Source of the DNA: Eledone cirrhosa
Lineage: Eukaryota
Reading direction: 5' to 3'
Assembly: GCA_964016885.1 (NCBI GenBank)
Contig: OZ024743.1
Location: 295,616,001 to 295,680,000 of the forward strand
Length of the DNA: 64,000 nt
Shown here: positions 5,965 through 59,036 of the stretch, piece after piece
Layout of the letters: each line of letters starts with the position of its first letter
Numbering within the stretch: position 1 is the stretch's first letter
Program-made: the position numbers and the translations under genes
The notes under the pieces: model-generated
Database searches by the model: none
What the model was told of the DNA's origin: nothing
Seen by the model: the letters and a program-made list of their open reading frames with translations, nothing else

Positions 5965-8900
5965 TCAGTCATCACTCTCACTATTAGTATTACCTGAGTC
6001 AAGGTTTTCATAAACTCTTTCCGCATCATTTTCACACTGTGTGGTGCACAGGCAAAGGTCGGTGCACTGCAGATTCTTTGACCTGCAAGAACATCTTTGT
6101 GAGGAACAATCTCCTTTGCACTGGCATCTCGCCATCTCAATGATGGCTTTAGGTGCTGAAGGATCATCAGTAGTGGTTGGCTTTAGTTGGCCATCATCTC
6201 CCTTGTAGTAGCCATTCTGCATTGAATCCAGCGGAACTTGCTGGAGAGTGCTTGCCTGGCTCCAAACTCGTGCTTGCACATGTACCCTTAAAATGTGCTG
6301 CTTGAGGGCACCAACTGTAGGTGGTAACTTGTCACTCTCTGACATGTATTTACAGAACAGGTACCATTGCAACTCTGGAATACTTTTGATTTGGATTCCT
6401 TTGTACTGTAGGCAGGACAGACAAAACTTTCCAAGCTGGTCAGAAGTTCTTCAGTCACTTCAGTATCATCAGACAGCTTTTTCAGAGCGTCAATGGTGTT
6501 ATCGTTAGCTTCAAGGAAGATTTTGAACCATGTGGCCTTTCCTAATCTAGCAAACCTTCCCGTATTATCGGCGCCAGAAAAGGCATGGAATGCAGGTAAA
6601 GCTTTCGCCTTTGCTGGACCTAAAATGTCCCAGAATGGCGGGATCTTTAGAACACTTGATGCCATGGAGATGGAGGTGTGCCTATGTAACAAATCATAGT
6701 TGGCAATTACCAGAACCAGGACATCTGTGTGAGGTGAGAAAAAGGCTAGTTGCATATCATCAGTGTGTCAGCTTCCTCGTGGTCGTTTTCACTGAAAGGT
6801 TCCAAATCATTGTTGCTCACGGTTTGGCCAGATGCTGAAGTGATGACAAGCTTGGAGGAATATTTGCTGTAGTACAGAGTCTTTTCTACCAAGTACTTGG
6901 TCGAATCAGCCTTCGTCTTTTCATGTAACAGGAATCTTCTCATGGTTATGTGCTTGATGCTCGTCTCATCTCTGACTTGATACTGGACTGGATCCTTCCC
7001 CTGGCGTCTCTTCTGCTTGGTTGCATTCTTCAAGGAATCGGTCTTATATGTGTCAAACATGAGAATTATTTCGTCAAAGTTCTGCATGAGGTTCATTAAT
7101 CTTTCATAGAAACTTTGGCTTAGATCTCTCACTGTAACCATGGTAGCTGGTTTCCTAGTCAGCTCCTGAATAAGCACCAATCCATCTACCACCGCAACCC
7201 TCCTGTTGTGATTGAGATTGTCTTTTTCAGTGGCTTCATCTTGCAGTGAATCGCCTTGTGCTATTTTCTATGATGCTATCTGAGATGAATGAGCTTGGTC
7301 TTGTCAGTGCATGGCAACACTGACCCATTTGGGGCAAAGAGTGCTCTTGGCGTCAAGGTGAACTCGTAATTGTTAATTGCTTCTTTCTGGTTCACGTCTC
7401 GGTCGGACCTGGCAAGAAGCATAAGTCTGCCATACAAATCTTTGGTTTCCTTCATGTCAATGGTTTTGTCACGAATCTTTACAGCATGTCTCTTGTTGCC
7501 AGATGTGAACATCTCGTTATTTTGTCTCTTCACTGGTGCCCAAAGGCTGACGTCCCCATTGATCCGTTCAGCAACATATTCCTCGTACAGCTTTTGTCCA
7601 GTGTTATCCATCTCCAAGATCTGCGTTACATACTCATCGGGGATATATACATGAGTTATCAAGTTGTAGAGTGTTTCCCCATCAGCAGCAAATTGATTTC
7701 CGTGAGTCAATATAGCACTCTTGATTTTGCTTACTGCTCCAAGATCTCGCTTGATTGCAGCTGGAGATAGGTTATGATGCTCAAGAGCATGGCTTTCACC
7801 AACACCGAATTGGTCCTTAAACTCCCTTGCAAGGCAGGACATTTCAGGAGCCTTGCATTTGGATTATTCGAAATTCCAGTGAGACCAGCTTGAACTTTCA
7901 TGAATTTGTTAAGATCTTCACAGGCATGGTCACCTCCAATGGATACGAACGGGATGGCATTCTTGGTGATGGATATATTGCCCTCTTCAAGTTACCTCCA
8001 TGTGTCGAGGTGGTTGGTCTTCAATGCGTGCATATCTGCTATGTAACGTGGCCAGAGTCTCTTATACTTTAACCTGTCCATTGAGAAGAACAGCTTGCTC
8101 AGTGCTTCTCCAGCTTCAAGATGAAGATTCAGATCAGCATTCCGCGATGCCGCTACAAAGTACAGAATTGTCTCTACCCGATGCAGATCTGAATATGGCA
8201 TTCTTAGACTTCTCTGCTTCCCAGTCTTGCAGTTTCTTGATCACATCATACTCTGCTAAGACTTGCTGCAGATGAGCATTTGTATGCTTCACAGACTCAA
8301 CTTTGGTGCCTTTGTTCTGAACCGCCGCTTCTACTTGAATCGTTGCTTTTAGACACAGATCTTTCAGATGAGGATTGTCCTATAGGAACTGCTCCAATGC
8401 CAGTTCATAAAGTGCCATGTGGGAGTAAATGTGTGCACGTAGAGAACGCTTGTAGTGTGTGTACTTCAGAATTTGTCTGGTTGTGTCAGAACTATACAGA
8501 TCGGCTTCCATCCAGGCGTCGTCTATTCCCGAGTTTTCAATTGAAGAGCCATGAGCTCTCAACGCAGCCATGACAACATGAAACTCACCAAGCCTTGGCA
8601 GCACTTTGCCCTTCAAATCTGGCCTAGCATCAACCAACTGTACTGCTTTCTCGTAGAGTGCTTGTCGAAGGAAATGACAGTGAGGTACTTGTCAGCAACT
8701 GCCAGCTCTTTTAATTTGTTTGCTTGCATCATAACGGTTAGCAATGTTGGCCATTCATACGCGACTTCTGGGAGCAAAGGTAGAGCTCCAACCTCAGTTA
8801 AGGGTAGGCTTGTCGACAAAAGTGAGTTATAGCCTGCCCAGCCTGGAATTCGACTCGAGTCTCCATCGTTCATTCGGGAAACAGCGTAGGCAACGATCCA

Positions 8901-10680
8901 TCCCAGATGTATGAGCTGGTAGGTACTATCCACACCTTCTTTGTCAATGGCAAACTGAATCATCCTCTTCTCTGCTGCTTTGGTTTCTCACAAGGAACTA
9001 TAGCTGTATGATATGGGGTCACAGATTGACTGTGCATCAGTGATATTTATGGGTGATGCAATTGGTTCTCCAGGGGCATCAGCTTTCTGGTATACGGCAG
9101 CGATAGTGCCATGGGTGGTACCTTTACCATCTAGAGTGTCCTCAGTGATATCCGCATTGTCTACTGCGAAGAAGACAAAAGTGCCTTTCTTGATGAATGG
9201 TGGCACATACAGCCCTTGGAACTGTTTGGTGTTCTCCACTACAACATTGGCAACGGCGGTTTCCATCATTAACGTACGGCTGTATGAAACACAGTAATCT
9301 TGGGCGTTGAGGAGATTAACGAGCATCTTATTTCTTGTCTTTTGATGGATGCTCAGCGCCAATCCCACAACTTGGAGATTTTCTCTAACATGCTGCGACC
9401 GAAAGCCAGCATGCTCAGTTTTGGGCTTGTATGTGACTTGTCTCTTAGACTTGCATCCAAACATCAGATTTTGACTCATTGTAAGGGCAGCTCTGTCCAC
9501 AGCATGTGTTCGAACTTCAGTCTCCAGTTCATTTGCAGGCCCTGCCATGATCCAGCGAATAAGTGTATAGAGTTCCACTGGCACATCTTCTATTTTGCTG
9601 GAAATTGGGATTGAACTTTGTGGCGGTTATCTTTTGGTAACATTTTCAATGCTGTGGCGAACAAGCTGAGCTGACATATAGAGATTCTTCATGTTGTCCG
9701 TGTCATCAGAAGTGATGGCAGAGTGAACCATTTTAACCTCACAGGCTTCAGGTAATACAATACAGCTGACTTTCGCCTATTGCTTTGCAGAACAGACTGT
9801 ACACCTGGAAATTCTGTTAATATTTTGTCTTTCAGCCATTTTCTGGTATAGACAGGTCTGTGATTTGGCAAAGCCTCTGCTTCACCTAGCATATTCAAAT
9901 AGGTATTCTCAATGTCTGACATGGAAAGATATGCGCCATCTGGGGTTTGCACGTCGATAATGTTCACTAATTCAATGAAACTAGCTGTTTTCTGTTGACA
10001 CCCACTCTCTTTGTTTGCTTTGTTTTCGATAGCTTTATCTCTCAGAACATGGAATACATTTCTTGTCCAACACTGTTTATGATATTTGATATCAATAGCG
10101 TGGGCATCCCCTTCGGAGATGCAAGATGCCATTCTTGTTTTTAGTTCTGGATTAGGAGAGATTTCCACAGCTTTTTTTAGAGCTTGGCCCGCATTGGCAG
10201 TTCTAACTGCAAACAACTGTTGGTCACCAAACGTTTGACAAAAAAAGCACAAATCATTTTCCAGTGGGTTTGTTGCTGACCGTGTAAACGGCCCTAAGAT
10301 TGTGGCAGAGGTTGATGGCTCACTCCTGTCAAAGCTTGAAAGGCGTCCTCGCTTTCTGCGGATATGTGATCCAGTAGACAAAAACCGTTGGTGACGGTCT
10401 CTTGCACGTTGCATTTTGACTTTACTGGTGGCGTTGGAGTAGCACGTGCGATGCCAAAAAGCCTTATTTCTCTGCAAAGTTTCTGTTGTGCAGTCTTCTA
10501 GCCTCTTTTGAATTTTGACAAATTCGCCATCATGCAGTAATGCTCGCTCCTTCACTGCAGCTAACAAACTATGGTATGAATATAATTTTGGTTGTAACAC
10601 AAACTGGCCTGCATCTTGTAGGCACAAAATACATCGTTTCCAGTCAATTATCTCTTGTTGCTGTCTACCAAGTCGTGGTC
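5965..10680 (-). pseudogene. Academ transposase-XPG nuclease-Cys8 finger protein, frameshifted
   Basis: Collinear ORF pieces: FFAVDNADITEDTLDGKGTTH, LPRLGEFHVVM (transposase); HEEADTLM, FFSPHTDVLVL, LPAFHAFSGADNT (PIN/XPG + H3TH); LPPT..HILR; CQCKGDCSSQRCSCRSKNLQCTDLCLC; likely splice acceptor TTTTTCAG at 10680. Confidence 0.85.
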
Positions 10681-11255
10681 TGAAAAATTATAAACACTAA
10701 TGAAGTAATTACATGGCATTTGATTATTATTATTATTTTTATCATTATTATTATTGTTATTATGTTAAATTAGCCACTAAATTTAGAAGCCCAGTTGGTT
10801 AGAATTTGAGATACTGCTGACAAAGGTTATCGGTAGTACCCATTTAGAAATTCCAAGATGGCTACCACAGACACCTTGAACAAAATGGCAACAATCAATT
10901 TTTTGGATTCAGTATGTCCTAAAGTTTTCGAAAATGTATAGTTTTGCTAATCTCTAAGAAATCTGAACGAAAGTACCAATCGTTACATTATGAACTTGAC
11001 TAATACTGACGTACTTTTTATTGAAGCAGTCTTTGAATAGATATCATAAATGTATTGTAAATAATATTGTACCAATTTGTATTTAAATATAAGATTTTTT
11101 GATGTGCTAAGCATCTTTTACTAAATTCATGAAAATGTCCTCAAAAACCTGATGCACCCTATACATTGAACTGTTTAGTTTAAGCCCCCAATTTAAAGTC
11201 CATGTTCAACTTCTGTGAATAATATATGCTGTAACATAAATAGTAAGCATTATCA

Positions 11256-11774: not shown

Positions 11775-14650
11775 TTTACAGGCATATACTCAGAGTATGT
11801 CCACTCACTCGGGCCATTCTTGCCTCTCTCACCCATCTTTCAACAAAAAGCTGGGAAGAGAGCACCTCCCTCTCTACCCTGATTTTCCTTTTCAATGAAA
11901 TTGGAAAAAGTTAATCAGGGCATAACCGAAGAGGTAAGTGCTCGTCTTCAGCACTTTCAAACGTGTCCACCATACTATCTCTTTCGCCATGGCCACAAGA
12001 CAGATAAAAACGCCTGCCCTTCCCGGCTAAAGAAATAGGGCGGGGCAATCCTCACGATGGACTCAGCTGATAGCTGGATCCGTCCTACACGTGACAGCAG
12101 GTGTTCGACATAAAACCACAAGTCAGCAATGGTCGAACACTAGACGAGTGCGTGCAGGACGGTTTCGTCGCCCTGCGCGCATTTCGGACATGTCCGGCTG
12201 ACGGCACCTCCATGCCTGTAGAGTTTATCCCGAACTGGCAAAGCTCCTCGGTAGCACTGCCAGGGATTTCTGGAAGTTGTCCCCGGCCCGAAAGTTCTTC
12301 CGAAGAGATTGATTTTCGTCGACGCCTAAAGTTTCTCCAAGTACGTCATCGCTCTTCCCCTCCACTAATCCTCTATAGAACGCCAAGGTGGAGTTTCCAC
12401 CGATCACATTGCCCGATGGTCGAGGGCTGTGAGCGCCTGAAGTCATTCCAGTCTCCAAGCGCTCCTCTCAGTCTTCGCTTGACCCAGGACTGCAGCTCCG
12501 TCAAGGAGACGAGCTGAGGAAAGACGCGTCTAGGAAACGGCGACCACATCTGATCACCGTCGAGGAAGAGGTGGAGATGTCGTAGCCTGAGTGCGTGTCT
12601 GCGCATCATCAGCCACGGCATGCCCAGCCCTCCACGTAGCGGCTGTTGACAGCAGATGGACCGCCTGACCATCGCAGCGCGTCCCTTCCACAAAAAGCGA
12701 AAGAGCAAAGGTTCCAGCGCAGTCAGGCGAGCTTAGGACAAGGGTCGACGGTCAGGCGTAGTAGATGACGGACGCGATGTACGCGTTAGCCACCTCCGCT
12801 CGACCTTTCAGGGATAGCTTCCTCTCCGCCCATTTCTGGGTGAGAGAAGCCACCCTGCTGTGCATGGCAGCGATCCAGCCTCTGAAGACGGGCCCAAAGC
12901 CAGCCGCCCTCAGGACTGCCACTAGGTAACGATGGTCGACCCTATCGAAAGCTTTCGACTGATGTAAATTGATCAAAGACCCACCCGTGCCAGGTTCCCT
13001 AGCTACCCTCTCTACGATGTATCGCATGAGGTGGAGGTTATCGTGGATGGATCTGTCGGGAATGGCGCATGTCTGCGCCTCTCCCACCAGACCACCAACG
13101 ACAAGCGCCAACTCTTTGTAAGCACCTTGGCCAAAATCTTGAACTCTGTGTTTAGCAGAGTTATGGGCCTGAAATTATCTATGTTATCCCCCCAGCTCAC
13201 AGAGCTGGGAATTCTCCCATTCTGTTGCCAGTTGCAGTAGACGTTCGCCAAGAGACCTCCGAACAAGTCTGGCATCTGTACGTAAAGTTCATAGGGCAGA
13301 CCATCTAAACCAGGCGATTTACCCTTTGTGCATCAGTCATTGCCTCCCGTACTTCAGCGGCTGTTATCGGCATTTCGCAACACTCCGCCTCAGTGGCCGA
13401 GGGCCGCGGCAGTCCGTCGAGGTAGACACTAAAGTCTATCCCTCGATCCGGCCCGCCGCGGCCCTCGAAGAGCTGTGCGAAGTGTCGCTGAAAAGCTTCA
13501 CAGATTTGCGCCCGTCGTGGTCCACCAAAGACCGGATCGTGGCTTTGTTTCCACGACGCGCCTCCACCACTCGGGCCCATTGAACGGCTTCCGTCCCCTT
13601 GTGTCTGAGAGCACGCACCCTAGCTCTGACAACGTAGCCTTCGTGCTTTGCATTGAAGAATTGGTCAAGGGCCAATTTCGCCGCAAGTACGTCGCGATGT
13701 CTTTGCTAAACGCACTGATCTAATTTTCTAACTAATTCTCCCTCTGCTCTATTTTTCTCTATTGCTAAAGCCTTACTAAACCTAATGGACTCTATTCTAA
13801 TCGCTCTTTTCAAAGCAAACCACCACTTGTTGTTGACGATGGCCCCCGTCAACGCCCGCTTAACTAGTTCGCTAATCCGGTCTGTAGACCTTGCGCGCTG
13901 GTAAGGACGCGTTTAGCTTCCAGTAGCCGGGTCCTCGTCTATCTAAGTCAATCACATAGATCACTAATTTGTGTTCCGTGTAGCTGACTATCTTGAATTG
14001 TGGACAGCCTATGCTAGACTTATCTATTTCCCTACAAAATACTCTATCTAGATATGATCTGGATAACCCTATGCGATTTGTTCAAGTCCACATTGGCACA
14101 TTCGGGAAATCCAATCGGTACCTGTCAGACTGTCAAAACGCCTGAGCAGGTTGGTGAGGCTCTTGCACTCTCCTCCCTTATCTGCTAATCCCACACAGTC
14201 CCAGCGTGCATCTAATATCCCGTTCCAGTCGCCCAATAACACTAAAGAGCGGGATGTTCCAAGAAAGGTCTCCAGACGCCGGAAGAAATCAGGTCGCCCT
14301 GCTCCTGTCGGGGCATAGACGGCCACTAGCCTGAAAGCTTGCCCGTCTCCGCTGGTCACATCCAGCACCACCAACTTACCTTCTGGGTCCAGGAAGATAG
14401 CCCGTATGGCGAGATCCAAACCTCTCCGAAAAAGCACAGCGACTCCTTCCCCCGAGCCAGGACGGCTGGGAGATGCGTACACATCCTAGCTGCCGAAGAT
14501 AGGTGCGATGGCCCGTGCTTCGGTGATTCTGGTCTCGATGATGGCCACTACATCTATGTTTAGTGACCTGAGGTCGTTGAGCAGGTGGCCCTGCTTCTAT
14601 GACGACCCCAAGCCACGCGTATTTATGCTGCCTATTCTGAGTGAGGTCAT
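11775..14650 (-). pseudogene. Tx1 A ORF2 (APE endonuclease-RT), frameshifted, RT core deleted
   Basis: MTSLRIGSINTRGL, VYAP, LGDWN, GYWKLN, FRPITLLNTEFKILAK, SKAFDRVDH; jumps from WIAAMHS to RVASLTQKW at ~12857 so QG/YADD are absent. Confidence 0.85.
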
Positions 14651-14714
14651 GTTGAAATGGAGTGGAAAAGATGGGAAAGACCACTAACCTTACTTCTCGT
14701 AGAGGAAAGATGGT

Positions 14715-16584
14715 TTATCCATCCTTTTCACTGCTTGTGGCCTCCTCCGGAAGGATGTCCTTATAAATCCTCCTGGAGAATGTTTGTCGGAAGTCTCTGA
14801 CGTCTTTGGGGAATTTTTGTTTCAATGTCGTGTACGTTTTCTGTGTGAATCGTGTGATTTGTATGTGTGGAGGTGGTGTGAACTTTTGGGTTGTTGTGTA
14901 GTCTTTTTCTGTGATGCTGGTGTTATGTTGGATGTAGTGTAGTAATTGGTTGTTGTTCAAATTTAATGCTGTGTAGTGTGTATCGTTTTGGTTGTTTTGT
15001 TTTGTTTGCGACTGTTGTGGGTTTGTTTCTGTTTCGCTTTTTGGTGACTTTTGTGGTGTTGGTGATGGTGGTGCTGGGGTTAATGATGGTGATGGGGTTG
15101 GTGATGCTGGTGTGGATGGTGGCATATCTGTCCTAACTTTTTTGTTTGATAGTTTATTTGTTTCCCTCTGTATTTTGTTTTTGGAGGCGGAAGGGAGAGG
15201 AATTTTTGTTTTGGGTTTCTTTTTTTCTTTTTTCCTGATACCGTTTCCCACTCCTCGTCGTCACAATCTGTCTCCAGTTGCAATAGGTCGGGGAGTGGAA
15301 GATCCTCCACAGCCGTTGGTTTTGGTTGTGGCGTGGTGGATGCTGTAGGCGCTGGTGCTAGTTCTGGCGCGTTGGGTGGTGGTGGTGTTGGTTTTGCTAC
15401 TGTTGGTGGGGTTGTTGCTGTTACAGCTGCTTCTGTTGTTGCTTCTACCGTTGTTGCTGCCATTTCTCCTGCTCTTGGTGTTGATGGTTGAGTTACTGGG
15501 GTGGGTAAGATAGGTGGCCTCAACCTTTTAGCCTGAGGGCAGAAAAGCCTTATGTGGGTTCCTTCACCACAAACCACAAACCTAGGCCTTCTTTACGGTG
15601 AGGTGGCTGCCGTCAGTGAGGTCTATTACCTCTGGGATCTCCTCAATGTTTTTTTGGTCCGCTTGGACCAGGAGCTCCATCCCAGATCCGGAGCAGTTCT
15701 CCTGCTTTTCTTTCGCTATTTCGATTATCTTGGTGTTGGCTTCGATGCCGGCGAGGACGGCAGCCATTAGCCAGGGAATTTCGATGGCCGGTGGAACGTG
15801 GGTCACCCTGATCTTCACGAGTCTCTGGCCACAATAGCTTGGGCCGAGTGTGAAGTCGTCACTTCTTAATGGGGCCATGGATTGTTCTCTGGCCTCCTGT
15901 GGTGTTTCAAAGAACACGTCCACGGTTCCATATTTCTGCCCACGTCTGATGTGGTTTTTTTGGCCCACACATGTCCCAAAGCTTTTTAGATTTGGGACTC
16001 GGATGCCCATTCCACTCGGCGCGATTTTATGTTAATCGTCCGATAAGACACGGTGCATAGGCGCCAATGGTCCATTTTATTAAGTGGGCGGTTGAGGCTG
16101 ATTCTGTACCCATCTTTCTTTAGCATTTTTTGGCTTCTTCTAATTTTTCCTGAGTTACCTGGAATGCTTAGCACTTTTTTGCTACTCTGGCAAAAGACAG
16201 GGTTTTCTTATTCTGATTGTTGCTGTTGTTATCGTTATTTTTGTTATTGTTAATTTTAGTTTCGGTTGTGGTGGTGGTGGTGGCGTCAGTGGTGTTCGGT
16301 GTGGAAGAGTTCATTTTGGCTGAATTCGTTTCGATGTTACGAGATAATTTATTTATTTCTTTTGTTTCTGTTGTCGCTGTGGTGGTGGGGGTGGCGGCTT
16401 CAACACCTGCAGTCATTGGTAATGGCGGGAAATGAATGTCTGCCTGAGACAAATTTAAAATATTGCTACTGCTTATATTTGTAGTGTTAGCAAACGTAGT
16501 AATATTTACAATGGTGGTGTCGGTGTGAGGTGTTAGTGTGTGAGGAAGGCTTTCAGCTACTGGGTTCAGCTGTGAGTCGGCCAT
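14715..16584 (-). pseudogene. Tx1 A ORF1 (gag-like, CCHC knuckle)
   Basis: Low-complexity N-terminus, RRGQKYGTVDVFF, VVCGEGTHIRLFCP knuckle remnant, Pro/Thr-rich tail; frameshifts. Confidence 0.75.
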
Positions 16585-16820
16585 GATTTTTCAAAGAAAT
16601 TTTAGTTTTGTCTGATAATTATAAAAGTTTAAATTTTGGGCTCAAGGCCCCAATCTTTTTGAGTGTCCTTTTCAGAAAACAATGTATGTGCACGTATATA
16701 GAGGAAACAATAAATATTTTCCATAAATGGCAATTTTAAACAACTGAAAACAACAAACCTTTGCGGAGCTCACGATAATACGATTTACTATGTAGGTCGC
16801 CAATAATAATAATAATAATA

Positions 16821-16992
16821 ATTGTTTCTACTTTAGGCACAAGGCCAGCAATTACCCAGTACATTACTGGTACTTTATTTTATCGACCCCGTAAGGATGA
16901 AAGGCAAAGTCAACCTCGGCGGGATTTGAACTCAGATCGTAAAGGGACGTAACTATGCTGGAAAGCATGGCGTCATACACTCTACCGATACT
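16821..16992 (-). mobile_element. SINE sandwiched between the two Tx1 copies
   Basis: Near-full SINE sequence flanked by (AAT)n on both sides. Confidence 0.9.
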
Positions 16993-17283
16993 AATAATAA
17001 TAATAATAATGATTTCATTTATTGGCCACAAGGGTCGACATATAGGGGACAATACAAAAGTCTGGGACAGTGGGGTTTTATAGAAAAGTCAAGTAAACAA
17101 AATGAATAATAATAACAAAGTAACAATAACAAAGTAACAATAAAGTGACAAGAAAATTACAAGAAAAAATTCCCCAATAGGGGGGATGACCACCTAAGGT
17201 TCGCTCAGGTACCCTACCAGTCCTTAACGACCCGACGAGAGCACCCTGGAAGGTCACCCCCTCTCCTCCTAAAATTTACCTAC

Positions 17284-19880
17284 CTACAGCCGCATGACCA
17301 GAGTAGGCCTACTCACATGGGCCATTCTCGCCACATTCACCCACCTTTCAGCAAATGTATTGGGGAGCAACACTTCTCTCACCACCCTCACCTTCCTTAC
17401 CAAGTGAAACTTGAAAAAATTGATGAGGGATTGGCCGAAGAGAAAAATGTCTGTCTTCAGTCCTTTCAACCTCGTCCACCATACAACCGCTTTTGCTACT
17501 GCCACCAGACAGAGGAAAATTGCCTGCCCTTCCTGGCCAAAAGAAGGCGGCGGGTCGATCTTCACTATGGACTCGGCCGATAGTCGGATCCGTTCTACAC
17601 GCGACAACAGCTGTTCAACATAACTCCACAAGTCAATAATGCACGGACACTGGACGAGTGAGTGCAGAACGGTTTCGTCGCTCTGCACGTATCTCGGGCG
17701 GTTCCGTCTGACAGCACTTCCGGGCCTGTAGAGTCTATCTCGAACCGGCAGTGCCCCCCGGTAGCACTGCCAAGCGAGGGATTTTTGGAAATTATCCATC
17801 GTCCCCGGCTCGAAAGTCCTCTGGTACAGAGTGGTTAGTTCGAATTCATTGACTCCCAGAGCCTCTCCGAGTGCGTCGTCGCACTTGCCCACCAATAATC
17901 CTCTATAGAACTCGAGAGTGGAAGTTCCACTAACCGCCTGGTGGAGGGCAGTGAGTGACTGGCAACATTCCAGATGCCAGTCACCCAGTCTCAGTCTCTT
18001 CTTGACCCAGGATGCAGCTTAGTCAAAGAAACGAACTGCGGAAAGGCCCGTCTGCCAAACGACGACCACACCTGTTCACTGTTTAGGCAGAATATCTGGA
18101 GATGCCGCAGCCTCAGCGCCTGCTTGCGCATCATTAGCCACGGCATGCCCAGCCCTCCACGTAGAGGGTGCTGGCAGCAGATGGACCGCCTCACCAGCGG
18201 AACCTGACCCCTCCACAAGAATCTGAAGAGGAGCTGCTCCAAGATGGCGAGGCGCGAACGGGGGCAAGGGACAATCGTCAGACGGTAGTAGATGACGGAC
18301 GCGGTGTATGCGTTCGCTACCTCTGCTCATTTCTGGGTGAGATTGGCCCCCTAGCAACTTTACCGGTGCGTCAGTCCAGCGCCTAACGACGCTGTTGGAC
18401 GTCATGGTCTTGCCTCTCCAGGTCCCGTGTTGCAAGCCCACCGACTTTTCCGTGTTATGTTTTGCTCCCGTCAACCTTTCATATTCCTCCAATAAGTTGC
18501 CGATCACCTCGATTTCTGAGGTGTCCGACACCATCAGGTTGATGTCGTCCGCATAAGCCGACGCAGCCTTTCCGCGTCCCGGTTCGTGCGGGATGCCCTG
18601 CAACATCTCCAGCTTCAGCAGTAAAGGCTCGAGAGTCAATAGGTACAGAAGGGAGGAGAGAGGGCACCCTTGACGGACCGATCGGGCGACCTGAAACGGT
18701 TCCGAGATGTGGCCATTAATTTTGACCATCGAGCAGGTGCCGCTGTGCATTGCATCGATCCAGCTTCTGAAGACGGGGCCGAAGCCAGCCGCCTTGAGGC
18801 AGCCTACGGGTACCGATGATCGACCCTATCGAATGCTTTCGATTGATCTAAATTGATCAGAGCCCCACCGTAGCCAGGTTTACACCGTACCCTCTATATA
18901 ATGTATCGCACTAGGTGGAGGTTGTCGTGTATGGACCTGGTTTTGATTGCGCAAGTTTGCGCCTCTCCAACCAAGTCCCCGACGACAAGCGCCAACCTCT
19001 TCGCTAACACCCTGGCCAAAATCTTAAACTCTGTGTTGAGCAGAGTTATGGGCCTGAAATTGTCTAATGTGTCCCTCTTGTTCTCGTCTTTCCTTATCAG
19101 CGTCACTATGTCCCGGCTCACAGAACTGGGAATACTCCCGTTTTGCTGCCAGTTGCAGTAGAGGGCTTCGAGGAGATTGGAGAACAAGTCTGGCATATTT
19201 ACGTAAAGCTCGTAGGGCATCTCTGACCCGCCACTTCCCCCGAACAACCGAGCAAAATGTTGGCGAAAGGCCTCACACATCCTTTTGGAATCGCTCAGCT
19301 CGTGCCCGTCTCGGTCCGTCAAAGACCGAATCGTGGTTTTACTACCACGCTGCGCCTCTGCCACGCGGGCCCATCGAACAGCTTTGGTTACCTCGTTTCT
19401 CAGAGCACGCGCCTTAGCTCTGACAATGCAACCTTCGTGTTTCGCATTGAAGAAATGGTCTAATGCCATTCTCGCCGCTCGCACGTCAGTTGCAATGCCA
19501 CTACGAATAGCCTCGTCTAACTTATCTACCAACTCCCGCTCCTTTCTATTTTTCTCTAAGGCTACTTCTTTGCTAAACTCTATTGACATTACTCTAATCT
19601 CTCTTTTGAGAGCCCCCACCATCTATTGTTGACGACTCCCCCTGTCAACTTTTTCTTAACTAAATTGTTGACCTGGTCCCTGTAAGCCTTATGTCCCGGA
19701 AATGACATGTTTAGCTTCCAGTAACCAGGTCCTAACCTACGCGTCTTATCTAAGTCGACCATCCTCGGAAATCCTGGTCTCGCTGACGCCAATTACATCC
19801 ATTTCTATAGACCTGAGGTCGTTGAGCAGGTGAACCTGCTTCCAGGACGATCCCGGGCCTCAAACATTTAAACACATACT
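17284..19880 (-). pseudogene. Tx1 B ORF2, RT core present, endonuclease largely deleted
   Basis: RSVRQGCPLS, AYADD, FRPITLLNTEFKILAR, ETVLHSLVQCP; endonuclease jumps from GVSETRIS to VDLDK..GPGYWKLN at ~19765. Confidence 0.85.
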
Positions 19881-19881
19881 C

Positions 19882-21827
19882 TTAATGCGGGCTCGTGTGA
19901 AGGTCGGGTTGTTCGACCTCCATAGTTGGTGGGGTTTCTTTTGGGAACCCCTTTAAAAGTCTTGAAGTGGGTTTTACGTTCGGGGTTCCCACGTCCCGAA
20001 GAAAGCTGTCTCGTATTTCTTTGAATATATCGAGCGACACTCGCACCAGAACCACATCTTCCGGCACGCGAAATGTGCTCGATTTAAAAATGTCCCCCTC
20101 TTTTTGTATATTTTCACTTCGTGCTACGAGGGCCATCAGGTTCCTTGTTGGCTCTCCTGACGTGCACGATGTTTTGTATGTTTTCTTGGTGTGATTTTAT
20201 TTGTTTGCGTGGTTGTGGTGGTGATGGTTTAGGTGGTGTTGTTTCGGTTGTATCTGTGTTTGTTGTGAGTGCGGTGTCTGTGGTTTCAGATGTTTGTGTG
20301 TATATTTCTTCTTGCGTCTGTTTAGGTTGTTTGCGTTTGGGGGATTCTGGTGATGGTGATGGTGGTGTTGACGTTGGTGTTATTGGAGAGATGTTTGCGT
20401 GGGTTGTGTCTGCGTTTTATATTGTGGCTGATTTTGTGCTTTGTTGAGTTTTTTTTTTCTTTATGTGTTTCCTTTTTTGTATTTTGGGGGATTTTGATTT
20501 TCCCTCATCTTCACTACTGGTAGATAAGGGGTCTGTGTCTGTAAGTGTGGCTCTAAGTATGTTTATGGTTTTATTGGTGTGTGTATTTTTTGGGGGGAGG
20601 GGAAATTTGACAGCTTTCCTCGTTTCCCCCCTGGGTGGTCAATGTTGGGTGGTGGTCTTTCTATTGGTGTTGTTGTTGGTGGTTTTTCCGGTGCTGATGT
20701 TGGTTGTGGTCCTCGCCCCGGTGTCGGCAGCATTGGAGCCTTTTGACCCCTTGCCTCTTTCAGCAGTTGAGGGCAGAAGGCTCGCAAATGGATTTTTCCC
20801 CACAAACAAAACACTGCGGCCTTTTGCCTTCGGTCATAATGTGAATGACCGTCCCATTCTGAAGGCGGATGTAGTCCGGGATTGTCTTCACATTCTCGGG
20901 CCTGATCTGGAGAAGGATCTCCAGGTCAACCCCGGACCAGTCCTCTCTGGCCGTTCTGGTCACTTCTATAGGGACGGTATCCGTCCCCTCCACAATCACA
21001 CATCCAAGAAGCCACCACATGTCAAGTCCTGGTGGGATTCTGGGAAAGCGGAGACGGGCCGTTCTTTTTACCATGTGGGTGGGGTACATTACGACCTTGC
21101 TGGTTTTGCAAGGAGTCATACCGTGTTTCATAGCGAGGGCTTCTGACTTGAACAACACCGAAATGATGCCGTACTGTCTGCCCCTCTCTATGTATTCGGC
21201 GTCTTCTCTGATGCACCTCAGCGCGATTTCGACATCTTCTTGTGGGATTAAAGCTGCCCTTTTGGTTTGTGCTGACATGCATCTATAATACACCGTTCTG
21301 CGCTCCACTGCCTCAATAGCTTCTACCGGGATAGTTAAGTTGGCCCAGGTTTGCTCTTGCTTGATGAGCTTCCATGCCTGGGCCAACTTTTCATCTTTGA
21401 TTGAGAGATCCATGTTGAAGCATGGCCTCTTTTTTGCTGCTGTCGCAGCGAAAGTGTTCCTCTTGTTTTCGTTGGGGGTGTTGTGGTCGTTGTCGTTGTT
21501 CTTGTTGGTGTTGTTGTTAGCACTGTCTCTGTTATCATTGTTGTCTTTGTTGCCACCGTTGTTCTCGGTGCAGTTGGTATTGTTGCTGTTGGTGTTGTCA
21601 CTATTTGTTTTCAAGTTAGTGGTGTTGATATTGTTGTTGTATTTGTTATTTTTATTTTCGTTATGTGTATTTTCGTTGTCGCTGTTACTGTCATTTTTTT
21701 CAAAATTAGTGTTTTCATTGGTATCATTGGTGTCTTTGTTTACATTGCTTGTGGTGGTGTTCGTGTTATCAATTTGTGTTAATTTCGCAGTAGCGCTCCT
21801 CTTAACTTCCACGTCGTTGTCGCACAA
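19882..21827 (-). pseudogene. Tx1 B ORF1
   Basis: Asn-rich N-terminus, YIERGRQYGIISVLF (homologous to copy A), CFVCGEK/HLRAFCP knuckle split by a frameshift. Confidence 0.78.
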
Positions 21828-22066
21828 CAGCAGACATATCGCAATTGGCGTGGCTCAGCCATTTTTTTTTCTCCGTAAATGTTTTATCGTGTAAAAAAAT
21901 GTTTATATTTGGACCAAAAGGCCCAAATATTATACTTTCCCCTTCACAGGGCAAAGTCTAAAGGTTTATATCCCTTACACAACAAGAAATATTTAACAAC
22001 AAATAATTTTAACAGGCAAATAAAGCGACTTACTGGGAGCGAGCCAAAAAGACGTCCGAACAGACC

Positions 22067-31934: not shown

Positions 31935-31935
<1 letters not shown>
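31495..31935 (+). mobile_element. PLE 3' end / pseudo-LTR with decayed HHR
   Basis: INKKRDLVSH remnant resembling the Neptune C-terminus; CTGATGA at 31816; homolog of 29047-29500. Confidence 0.55.
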
Positions 31936-31973
<38 letters not shown>

Positions 31974-31977
<4 letters not shown>

Positions 31978-32673
31978 TGTATGTATACGTACATACATAT
32001 ATGTATACAGACGTACAGTAGTATGTATATACATACATGCGCACATATATACATGCACGTATCGATACGTGCATGTATATATGTGTGCATATATGTATAT
32101 ATATATACATACTACTGTACCTCTGTAAACATATATGTATGTACGTATACACACATACATACTTACATTTAAGTAAGTGCCGTACTAAGAGTGAGAAATG
32201 AAATTTCGTTTCATTCTATTCCATTTATCGTTTTCGGTGTGCCCGGCCGACTGAACTCGCTCAATATCCAAATTAGGCTGCTCAGCCGTTAATATGCATA
32301 AGGAAAGTATATACTTTCAGACGTTCAACCATCTGGCAGGAAGGTATACGATGCTGACGATAGCTAATAAGCTTGAAACTAGTACATCGTTCCTGTGTCA
32401 TTGTTGAACAAAAAGGTGACGTGGTTACCTAAACACTGTACGGCGTAATTCGGGCTGTTTGTTTGTTTACAAACAAACAAACCGAGCATTATAATAAATG
32501 TTCGATAAACCGATACGTGCATGTATGTATGTGTGCATGTATGTATATATATACATACTACTGTACGTCTGTATACATATATGTATGTACGTATACACAC
32601 ATACATACTTACATTTAAGTAAGTGCCGTACTAAGAGTGAGAAATGAAATTTCGTTTCATTCTATTCCATTTA
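31974..32673 (+). mobile_element. retrozyme-like non-coding element, family 1 (~447-nt unit, 1.35 copies, hairpin cap)
   Basis: Direct repeat 32063-32227 / 32511-32673; inverted copy 31974-32063; HHR inside; (TA)n flanks. Confidence 0.8.
32348..32390 (+). ncRNA. type I hammerhead ribozyme, intact minimal
   Basis: ACGATG-CTGACGA-T-AGCT-AATA-AGCT-T-GAAA-CTAG-TA-CATCGT: 6-bp stem I, canonical core, palindromic stem III ACTAGT. Confidence 0.9.
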
Positions 32674-33227
32674 TATACATATATATAGCTCAACTATATA
32701 CGACGCAAGCCCAGAGATGCAAAGACACCAAGTCTCAAGTAAAGTTGTGCAGTTCACCTGGCCAGCGTCTTCTACTACTACAGCCTGATGTTGACCAATG
32801 CGATGTGAGTTAAATCGCGCGTAAACTGATCCTATTTAGAAAAATATGTTTATAGGCTTTTAGATTAACACAATTTCATTAACAAGTGTTACACCCATTC
32901 TTCGTATTTGAATGATATGTAAATAAGCAATTGACAGATGTAGACTATTTACAAAATTTATACAGTCAACTATTGACATCCGTACATTAGTAGCCTTGTA
33001 ATAATGAAGCACTTACTGAAAGTGGATACAAATATTGGATTACACGGAAAGACCTCGTAAATCGACACTGAGGAAACTGAGATTTGATCACAGCTTAAAA
33101 TAAACTCAGTGAGACTATGTGTATTATGTTTATTTATACATAAATATATTGCATATGGGTAAATTTACGCCTATATACATATGTGCGGGCGTGAATATGT
33201 TTATAAACATATTCATATATATATATG

Positions 33228-46446: not shown

Positions 46447-47009
46447 ACTCCGGTACTTATATCTTCGTTGAGTGCTCCCTATCCTCATACTGAAGTACTG
46501 GATTTTACCAACATTTACTTTCTTGCTTATATATATATATATATATATATATAGTTAAAAGAATAGAGATGTAACACACAAGTTATTATATATTGGTAAA
46601 CGGAATAGAAAATGCTGACAAATTGTTCACAGTTGAAAGATGGTTTAATTAGGAATAAAAGAGTATTAGTAATTGTATGGGTTAGTATTCAGTTGTGGTT
46701 TTAAGTTTTTAAGTTTTTACCGGTTGTGCATTTCTAAATGCTTTTCAAAAATAATTTTGAGATAGAGTGTCCGTGTTGTTTGCTCTGATCTGATTAGTTT
46801 TGGGAATTCTACCTGTTTTTATGTTAAAAAAGTGGCTCCAGGGCTACTTTGGTGTTGCAAAAATTCTTGTGGTCAAAACAATTTTGATTGGTAGGTAGAG
46901 GTCATGTGAATGTAAAAAATTGATTTTTACATTCACATGACCTCTACCGACCAATCAAATATATATATGTATATATATATATATGAATGTATATATATAT
47001 ATATATATA

Positions 47010-47727
<718 letters not shown>

Positions 47728-48000: not shown

Positions 48001-48065
48001 ATTTTATTATACATATTTCAGAGGTACTGAGTTAAGTTCAACAGTACGTCCTCATCAGATAAAAT
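48001..48065 (-). ncRNA. type I hammerhead ribozyme
   Basis: ATTTTAT-CTGATGA-GGACGTACTG..CAGTACCTCT-GAAA-TATGTA-TA-ATAAAAT. Confidence 0.82.
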
Positions 48066-50337: not shown

Positions 50338-51508
50338 GTTAAAAATGTAGGCCTGATTGTTTAGTGTTTTTTCCTGACTTTTGCGAGGCTTGGAATGTAG
50401 ACAAAGCTTTATGAAGGCAGTTTGAGAATAATTCACTTTTTTTGTTAATTAAGTTTTCATAATTAGTAATTATTAATAGGGTCTCCTTTGTGCAGAGGTT
50501 GCAGTTAGTAAATATAGATGAGTGCGTATATATTTTACTATTACAAAGCTTCGTTCAAAAGATCGAGTATTTTAAATTTTTGTCTTTTAATGACCATATA
50601 AGTTGTGATAAAGAAGTCGAAGACTTCCTATTAAAATTCGAAAATGAGCATTTGTGATTCGCAAATCTTGATTTAAATGTCGAAGAGGTTGTTCCTATGT
50701 AGTTGTATGTGTTGTTATTTGTTTTTACGGTGCATTTATACACCAGATTTCTATCCAGACAATTATTTTGCAGAGGGCAATCTGGTTTATTTCTACAATT
50801 ACATTTCGATTTATTATTATTTATATTAATACTATTATTAATAGCATTATGTTGATTTTGGTTTAGAATTATACTATTTAGTTTAGCGATGTTTTGGGCC
50901 ATATTCATAGTTGTAGAATAAGACAGTTTAATTGTGTGTCTAATAAATATGGAGTGGCATTTATGTTGACTAGGGAACGAACTATGTAAAGCTTGAAAAA
51001 ATAGATTAGCTATTGGTGTTGTTACTGCTACAGAAGCAGGGGCCGCAAACCATATAACTGATTTAGTTCTGGTTCTTTTCCCCGATTTATTCACAGTACA
51101 GGTGTTTGAATTACAATTATTAGAATTTCGTTTATATATGCCATCGTTTATATATGCCATTATTTTTATCAGGATTAAGACTCGGATTATTATTGTCTAT
51201 ATATTCTATATTATTTTTATAACCTGCCCTTCTTAGCGCATCATTGTAATATTCTGCTTTTTCATCAAATATTAATTTATTGGCAGATATTCTAGTTATG
51301 CGTTTTTGTACACTATTTACAATTGCGTTTTTCACAGATTTAGGATGATTAAAGTAATAACTAACGTAATTTAAGTTTTCATTGGGCTTATGGGAAGGGT
51401 AATAAAAACCAGAGTTTAAGTTAAGGGTAACATCAAAGAAATTAACTATTTTGGTACCACTTTCTACCTTTAGTTTAAGGTCGTAATTTTTAAAGAATTC
51501 AATTATAT
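50338..51508 (-). pseudogene. Neptune-type Penelope-like element: RT thumb, Cys linker, GIY-YIG endonuclease; 5'-truncated, frameshifted
   Basis: VNFFDVTLNL, NHP, VIWF..P, IKLSYS, CNCRNKPDCPLQNNC, LVYKC..YIGTTSSTFKSRFANH, CNLCTKE..LINKKSELFSNCLH. Confidence 0.88.
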
Positions 51509-51510
51509 GA

Positions 51511-52384
51511 AAATTGTGTAATATGGAATTATTTTGTATTATGAAATGCAAAAATATTTTATTAAATAACAGAATAGAGCGATCGTTATACTGTAACCAT
51601 CGCTTGAAATCTACATTTTCATATTACAAACACTACCAGGATTGAACGCCTGTCTCCATCTCCGTTTGATTGTCAAAATACATATTAACATTCTCTATCA
51701 GTCTTAATTCTATCAACTCTTCTATTCTTTACCATTTAATATAAATTGCTATAGATAAAATGTGATTTCTTAATTCAATTCCCTAATGCATATACCAGCA
51801 GACTACCAGCATTGTTGTTATTCAGTAGCAGTGTAAATCTCCCTCTTCCTTAATTGACACTTTATATCTATTAATACTACTACACCAAACGACCAGCCCT
51901 GTTCATTGTTCAATTGGTCAAGTATAGATTAAAATAGGCACTCCCCAAAATTCTTATTTAGATAAAATAAACCATATTCTCATTAGAAACCCTTTATATA
52001 CTTGTTTACCAGTAAATTGAATTGCCATCTGTCATATACTATCCCCTCTCTTCCTTTCTTACAACTAATATAAATACTTCAATTTTTCTGATTTTTTCCA
52101 ATTTATCCAATATCTCTGAAGAAGTGACAACTGATTATACATTTGCTATCGAATACTTGCTAACATTATATGATTATGCAAGCAGCGATACATAGGTATT
52201 CCGTCTGTTACAGAAACATATGTCAATACCTAATAAATTCCTTTTTAAAAAAGCACTTTCATTTTATATTCATCTTTTCTACATTTTCTCCGGATTATAA
52301 TGTATACTCGTTGAGTAAACCTACTCGTACGCTGTTCATCTCTAACGTGACGATATATTATCACTACATTATTGATAACCTGAA

Positions 52385-52417: not shown

Positions 52418-52552
52418 TCATACACGAAATAATTACATCTGCGTTCACAGATTGATTTTTTTAGTTTCAGAAGATCCCGTTAAGGATGAAAGCAGCGATT
52501 CTTTGCTTAAACTTTAATCTGTTATTTTAATAAATATATATATATATATATG

Positions 52553-58469: not shown

Positions 58470-58538
<69 letters not shown>

Positions 58539-58541
<3 letters not shown>

Positions 58542-58591
58542 AGTATGTATGTATACGTACATACATATATGTATACAGACGTACAGTAACA

Positions 58592-58659
<68 letters not shown>

Positions 58660-58852
58660 CAGGTACACATACATATATGTACGCATCAGTTTAGCGGACG
58701 CTTATTACAGCGCCCGCTTTGTTCGTTTGTAAATAAACTGAACAGCCTGAATTTATGCCGCACGGTGTTAAGGCAACCACGTCACCTTTTTTAAACTGAT
58801 GCGTACATATATGTATGTGTACCTGATGCGTACATATATGTATGTGTACCTG

Positions 58853-58900
<48 letters not shown>

Positions 58901-59010
58901 TGCTACTATACGTCTGTATACATATATGTATGTACGTATACATACATACTTACATTTAAGTAAGTGCCGTACTAAGAGTGAGAAATGAAATTTCATTTTC
59001 ATTTTATTAC
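58539..59010 (+). mobile_element. diverged partial copy of retrozyme-like family 1 with inversion
   Basis: ACTTACATTTAAGTAAGTGCCGTACTAAGAGTGAGAAATGAAATTTC shared with 32161/32607; 58539-58791 is the reverse complement of the 32410-32615 type sequence. Confidence 0.8.
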
Positions 59011-59036
59011 AACTATATATATATATATATATATAT

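Follow-up and report, generated by a model that had tools for sequence, protein, structure and literature searches.

A high-copy, ORF-less hammerhead ribozyme repeat of Eledone cirrhosa is a likely non-autonomous PLE with a putative U6-type promoter

The stretch of DNA analysed here, 64,000 nucleotides from Eledone cirrhosa (the "window"), contains an insertion that has no open reading frame (ORF) and bears a hammerhead ribozyme (HHR). Its parts are listed in Table 1; unit positions are counted from u1 = 32226, and the unit of this copy is 446 nt long. The insertion reads, in order, (TA)n, an inverted arm (u379 back to u286), a sense arm (u286 to u446), a full unit that stops at u449, and TA. 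A sequence-only reading of the window had described a direct repeat with a period of 446-448, the lack of an ORF and an HHR at 32348-32390, and all three are confirmed. The repeat (32063-32227 versus 32511-32674) is 96.4% identical over 165 nt, its offset changing from 448 to 446 through a 2-nt indel; no stop-free frame in the circularised unit is longer than 83 aa; and the helices and core of the HHR are in place. The cap described around ATCGAT is indeed an inverted copy (31975-32064), but it is a second 5'-truncated arm and not a designed hairpin.

Table 1. Features of the hammerhead-bearing insertion in the window
Feature	Position	Strand	Basis
(TA)n target tract, left side	31935-31974		sequence
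Inverted 5'-truncated arm, u286-379; its 3' end, site A, adjoins (TA)n	31975-32064	-	alignment
Head-to-head junction ATCGAT; CG is the overlap of the two arms	32061-32066		alignment
5'-truncated partial unit, u286-446 (pseudo-LTR)	32063-32225	+	alignment
Single full 446-nt unit, ORF-less	32226-32671	+	alignment, frame check
T4 run immediately beyond the preceding unit's site B; might act as a leaky Pol III terminator	32231-32234	+	inferred
U6-type upstream box; family majority TATGCAAATTAGG, with octamer ATGCAAAT inside; 32268 is C, not G, in the window copy	32265-32277	+	motif comparison
TATA box inside palindrome 32303-32318	32308-32313	+	sequence
Predicted transcription start (TATA+30 to box+77), in GGCAGG common to family 2	32338-32343	+	inferred
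Type I hammerhead; predicted cut after A32384 (u159); palindromic helix III (dimer type)	32348-32390	+	sequence/fold
Double hairpin kept in family 2; candidate protein-binding site; several 5' breakpoints inside	32456-32504	+	binding role inferred
TA/TG-rich segment up to site A (u~389), the first fixed 3' end	32511-32614	+	end mapping
60-nt tail up to site B (u449 = 32674), the second fixed 3' end	32615-32674	+	end mapping
TA-rich target, right side	32675-32688		sequence

The window copy is probably inert, a dead end, because it has a single HHR and a mutated upstream box (the C at 32268, where the majority letter is G, is found in 3 of 106 family copies). An HHR count of one also falls short of that of a retrozyme, which other loci of the family, such as L199 and L302, do reach. 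Elsewhere in the window, at 58534-59011, lies an older second insertion of the same family ("family 1"), without an HHR and with its internal TA expanded; its arms are u185-392 on the minus strand, ending at site A, and u287-444 on the plus strand, ending at site B.

Family 1 is large. A search of the organism's own genome with the unit returned 2,408 candidates, of which 40 were scored, at 97-100%. A 22-mer from downstream of the HHR has 19,538 exact genomic matches, which are motif matches rather than loci and suggest about 20,000 copies. There are several subfamilies, with units of 420-446 nt, and the median divergence from the majority letters is 2.7% (166 unit copies). Each unit has a type I HHR; the tandem units are short, have neither ORF nor LTR, and form arrays of up to 7.5 units. 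By its sequence organisation, then, the family is a large ORF-less non-LTR retrozyme, a known class of element. One young array, L302 (G000:C1:9966800-9974500), is a palindrome of 7.5 plus 2.4 units centred on the u231 hairpin, with the octamer mutated in most of its units. Diverged, low-depth family-1 contigs were also seen, among runs X5 and X6, in a run labelled as organism B, and may reflect a relative or contamination.

The HHR of the window consists of a 6-bp helix I (ACGAUG/CAUCGU), CUGACGA, a 4-bp helix II with a U.U pair at its base, GAAA, and a 1-bp helix III with the palindromic loop CUAG. With such helices it is not "minimal" in the published sense, as had been proposed; this is the helix geometry of the canonical metazoan type I HHR (PMC4209133). 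In computed folds, the active monomer lies at -1.7 kcal/mol versus a minimum free energy (MFE) of -8.5, and the active dimer at -20.2 versus a cofold MFE of -20.4 kcal/mol. The family HHR is predicted to be of the canonical metazoan type and to act as a dimer. An Rfam scan of the window gave 0 matches, with no family at its gathering score. The exact 36-nt HHR core has 3,352 genomic matches and its reversed control none, so its count is far above chance. Covariation was assessed in 67 HHRs from loci that had not been selected for the HHR, with at most nine substitutions and no indels; units of one array are not independent in this set. The helix I pair 126/162 is U.G in 53, G.U in 7, A-U in 3 and C-G in 2 of these, and pair 136/149 is U.U in 63 and C-G in 3. 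Recurrent variants of the core region fall at N7 and H17. These patterns suggest that the HHR is under selection and that helix I covaries, and self-cleavage is predicted.

The ends of the copies were mapped in two samples. Sample 1 took the HHR loci of C1 in place order up to the 60th (one previously examined locus was skipped) and comprised 101 segments. Its 99 3' ends that lay within the stretch fell at site A in 40 cases (u361-399, mode about 389), at site B in 43 (u430-452, mode 449) and elsewhere in 16. Thus, 83 of 99 ends are at one of two sites 60 nt apart, whose windows cover 14% of the unit, the share expected under the null (P~1e-54). Sample 2, which was unselected for the HHR, comprised the first 100 matches of the 22-mer in 58 stretches (13 loci overlap sample 1, and one segment was unmapped); there, 63 of 71 3' ends were at site A or B. 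The sequence-only reading had the endpoints permuted. That proposal fails, because the 3' ends occupy two fixed sites. TA-rich DNA lies 3' of 60 of the 83 defined ends versus 3 of the 16 others in sample 1. The 5' ends, by comparison, are scattered round the unit, i.e., the copies are 5'-truncated.

The arms are paired in a near-strict manner. Sample 1 has 30 head-to-head pairs, and in all 19 pairs with both ends defined, one arm ends at A and the other at B. Sample 2 added five new A+B pairs, after the removal of one segmental duplicate and two repeats, for 24 of 24 in the place-ordered samples combined. Among the 30 best-hit loci, 12 of 14 pairs were A+B; the exceptions were A+A (L010) and B+B (L020), in each of which one end has no adjoining TA. 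An inverted family arm is joined at 93 of 156 5' junctions, each arm being counted. In PLEs, the "tail" is the interval between two internal start sites of reverse transcription, both target strands being cut and extended (PMC11167929), and Fig. 2 of PMC8557442 depicts PLE anatomy as a tandem with an inverted arm and a one-sided tail. The two-site 3' ends and inverted arms of the family are, in their DNA pattern, this tail insertion signature.

Coding PLEs with similar ends are resident in the genome. A young PLE family has an intact 713-aa ORF (L164:2359-4497) with the marks of the Hydra type, namely DKT, RWR (RWK-like) and CxCx5C. Its nearest Atlas clusters are HTH_animal/GIY-YIG/RVT_1 (0.96-0.99), and Pfam and PDB searches returned no name for it. 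Loci of this family that were read by eye have (TA)n targets and inverted arms, and their 3' ends fall at two sites about 85 nt apart. The pLTR of the family contains an HHR-like fold whose core, CAGAAGA, has A in place of U4, a form that standard descriptors would overlook, and a 3' fragment of the family lies at about 52440-52535 of the window. The window also holds a broken Hydra-type PLE on the minus strand (50555-51623) with an RT thumb, CxCx5C and GIY-YIG; an HHR core at 48058 (minus strand) belongs to that PLE family and accompanies 6 of 30 relatives. No sequence similarity was seen between the unit and the pLTRs of these two coding families. Because it has the PLE end signature and none of 156 5' junctions is attached to a PLE ORF, family 1 is likely a non-autonomous PLE (a non-LTR retrozyme). 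Two seeming chimeras with a coding PLE were rejected: L068 is an insertion into an ORF with a 9-bp duplication, and at L063 the two share a TA tract.

What template gave rise to the copies? More than one unit is present at 33 of the 60 sample-1 loci and more than two at 6 (54 have under two), the units being joined head to tail without an ORF between them. Subfamily letters mismatch in 7% of comparisons within arrays, 11% between inverted arms and 37% between loci. Rare variants are common to both copies in 16 of 588 cases within arrays versus 72 of 19,817 when different loci of the same subfamily are compared. Units are nearly homogeneous in the young arrays L199, L274 and L302; in L199, ten non-majority letters recur in all three units, and five of these are also in L117. 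Older arrays are mosaic, with private variants only patchily common to their units. The ABAB array L292 was entertained as the copy of a dimer circle. This was rejected in favour of a later DNA duplication, because the pieces at its ends correspond to neither A nor B.

Linear monomers cut by the ribozyme were likewise rejected as the main template, because breaks at the cleavage site are rare: 5' breaks fall there in 2 of 55 cases, without a pile-up, and 45 pattern matches break there versus 3,352 intact cores. Of 12 such breaks inspected, four were true truncations, and the others belonged to a GUU-type subfamily in which a letter differs; breaks at a control position numbered 26, with fewer subfamilies covered than at the cleavage site. 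The template must have been longer than one unit, with an intact cleavage junction, and a circle and a linear multimer fit equally well. The chances that a circle rather than an uncut multimer is the main template seem to us evenly balanced.

The unit has a possible promoter of its own. Family 2, a homologous ORF-less HHR unit of 443 nt (window 47005-47631, minus strand; 2,259 genomic candidates), has an inverted arm, two 3' sites, a TA target and a T-run at its site B. The two families have colinear blocks in common: the octamer box, the TATA palindrome, GGCAGG, the HHR and the double hairpin. The octamer stands no more than 320 nt upstream of 133 of 185 HHRs in family 1 (123 of them at -88) and of 14 of 15 in family 2, against 2 of 136 HHRs in eight other HHR families. 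In the host, the U6 loci L218, L219 and L220 and the best U6atac locus, L303, carry TATG(C/G)(A/T)AAT(T/G)AG at -76 to -78 and TATA at -30. The family box, TATGCAAATTAGG, is identical to this host element in 12/12 or 12/13 letters, and its distance to TATA is 42 nt in family 1 and 45 nt in family 2, against 46-48 nt in U6/U6atac. When box alignments were set against 100 shuffles, a single alignment beat all of them on its own. The predicted start (u113-118) is 5-10 nt before helix I. The family is therefore likely transcribed from a U6-type promoter of its own, as judged from these resemblances. An external promoter upstream of the start, if inherited, implies that the template must run into the next unit, as a multimer or circle would.

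The box is absent at the equivalent place in the five host U2 upstream regions inspected. In two more U6 array copies that were inspected, the promoter is interrupted by an insertion, and five other U6atac matches, which are pseudogene-like, have no box at the equivalent place. Several observations qualify the promoter assignment, the short spacing from box to TATA among them. A Pol III reading is strained by the commonest subfamily, in which a T6 run lies ten nt ahead of site B, 8 nt are deleted after TATA, and TTGGG replaces TTAGG. At the predicted start lie 10 of 60 5' ends (P=0.03), yet another bin also has 10, and there is no significant pile-up. An octamer with TATA is also a Pol II layout, and the promoter of newt satellite 2 reportedly contains an octamer. 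The family-2 copy at 47005-47631 has up to three octamer-like boxes with a 33-nt period. In the literature searched, which did not extend to Repbase, Dfam and some supplements, no paper was found that deals with the family or that assigns a U6-type promoter to any retrozyme. The putative U6-like promoter of families 1 and 2 thus appears to be new; a review states that retrozymes seem promoterless (PMC7761336).

On balance, we hold it probable that the high-copy HHR repeat is a non-autonomous PLE, mobilised in trans through the protein of a Hydra-type PLE and likely transcribed from its own U6-type promoter. The box and TATA of one tandem unit would direct initiation 5-10 nt ahead of the HHR, with read-through extending over the next unit and its promoter. 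Two HHRs, pairing via the palindromic helix III, are predicted to excise a monomer, which could be ligated to a circle. By analogy with PLE biochemistry, the PLE endonuclease would cut both strands of (TA)n, and reverse transcription would begin internally on the RNA, one strand using site A and the opposite strand site B. The outcome, seen as a pattern in the DNA, would be two 5'-truncated arms in head-to-head orientation, of which just one carries the tail. Copies often longer than a unit would again have a promoter upstream of the HHR. A bolder version, which we regard as doubtful, holds that the retrozyme lineage captured a host U6-type promoter and inherits it via HHR-made circles. Rare read-through transcripts would be cut and closed into stable circles; if a dimeric PLE protein then used two fixed sites of a single circle to prime both strands, the A/B arm pairing would follow and the promoter would be restored upstream of the ribozyme.

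Other explanations must be weighed against this one. Satellite DNA spread by DNA mechanisms, or a SINE driven by a LINE, is scarcely credible. Although LINE-type RT ORFs are present in the window (RVT_1, 1.8e-9) and one array did duplicate at the DNA level, the single 3' end with a poly(A) or repeat tail is absent, and the copies are dispersed, mostly with under two units. Nor does L1 twin priming fit two internal ends with A/B complementarity. Broken LINE-type elements (RVT_1 at 18079-18825) and a run of broken ORFs that resembles a large transposon occupy 12000-21900 and 5965-10687 of the window; a search with one ORF gave no Pfam match. It also seems quite unlikely that the repeats are ordinary pLTR debris, i.e., 5'-truncated 3' ends of a coding PLE. 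Coding PLEs do have the same kind of fixed 3' ends, tail, inverted arm and (TA)n target, and the genome contains about 60,000 and 39,000 PLE-like candidates. The head-to-tail units without an ORF between them, however, speak against debris. So do the 5' flanks: with a library of four reference stretches from three families, none of 156 entered a coding PLE or a common upstream sequence, a count compatible with a coding parent at less than about 5% of copies. Fixed ends attached to a coding PLE had been named in the sequence-only reading as the mark of such an origin; the ends are fixed, but the attachment is absent.

That reading's own account, put as rolling-circle copying of a ~447-nt circRNA with random entry and permuted ends, is very improbable in our judgement. 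Copies longer than a unit with an intact cleavage junction, the rare variants common to arrays, and the letters common to L199 and L117 agree with it, whereas the two fixed 3' sites do not, and arrays also grow after insertion, as in L292. Of copying more than once round a circle, the more-than-unit template stands, and a linear multimer fits as well as the circle. A retrozyme-like family is borne out by dispersed ORF-less HHR units, tandem arrays and more-than-unit copies. The interpretation, which included neither the PLE tail signature nor the U6-like promoter, is thus partly supported. An unlikely, though more serious, contender keeps the PLE and dispenses with both promoter and circle: read-through or Pol II transcripts of arrays would be copied uncut, and the box would be a DNA- or protein-binding relic. 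The apparent lack of promoters in retrozymes (PMC7761336), the dispensability of HHR cleavage for insertion in vitro (PMC11167929), the T6 before site B and the short box-TATA spacing favour it. On the other side stand the near-identity of the box to the host U6/U6atac element, at a similar TATA distance and upstream of the HHR, and its presence in two diverged families but not in eight other HHR families.

The preferred reading, a PLE-mobilised unit with its own promoter, can be set beside known systems. Metazoan non-LTR retrozymes, in the accessible part of PMC7229834, are like the family in being ORF-less and low in GC, in having type I HHRs, in ranging from monomers to multimers and in co-existing with PLEs. 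The helix III of the family is like that of the axolotl HHR_Amex1, and its U.U at the base of helix II like that of HHR_Amex2. Its DNA unit of 420-446 nt compares with RNAs of ~170-400 nt and repeats of 150-450 bp in that source, the accessible part of which does not describe the fixed ends, inverted arms and putative promoter of the family. The available portion of a preprint (bioRxiv 10.64898/2026.07.22.740005) concludes that retrozymes are non-autonomous PLEs, i.e., the same origin and driver. Its basis is vertebrate co-occurrence and pLTR similarity, with the mechanism left open; ours is the insertion signature, and a parent pLTR was not found in the two coding families compared.

The resemblance to PLEs is close. 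Poseidon PAc (PMC11167929) and the Hydra clade (PMC8557442) have, like the family, a tail set by two internal RT starts, use of both strands, an AT-rich or (TA)n target, a tandem plus an inverted arm, and an HHR upstream of the tail. Unlike those PLEs, the family has no ORF, and its tail measures 60 nt versus the typical 30-40. Its near-strict A/B pairing also differs from PAc in vitro, where start sites were alike between strands (PMC11167929). Newt satellite 2 and schistosome Sm-alpha, according to PMC2220036, are HHR repeats with their own promoters, of snRNA type (Pol II) in the former and Pol III in the latter; the motifs of the family match the upstream elements of host U6/U6atac, not U2. 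Relative to the literature searched, the ORF-free PLE insertion signature with A/B pairing appears to be new.

For animal retrozymes, it is an open question in the field what copies them, how transcription occurs and what purpose the HHR serves. A PLE two-start-site signature without an ORF would constitute direct genomic evidence of PLE mobilisation in trans. Keeping an external promoter is a suggested reason for both the ribozyme and the tandem form, and the A/B rule would constrain models of PLE integration. A 446-nt RNA and a resident, intact 713-aa PLE protein could together provide a compact test system.

The family has company in its target sites. The flanks of L001-L182 contain ten or more distinct HHR families that terminate in (TA)n and share TA tracts, where they are stacked tail to tail. 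In several of these HHR families a hairpin-like motif, ACTC...GAGT(A/G)C, lies between the two end sites, and several have the motif TTCCATTTAT near one end.
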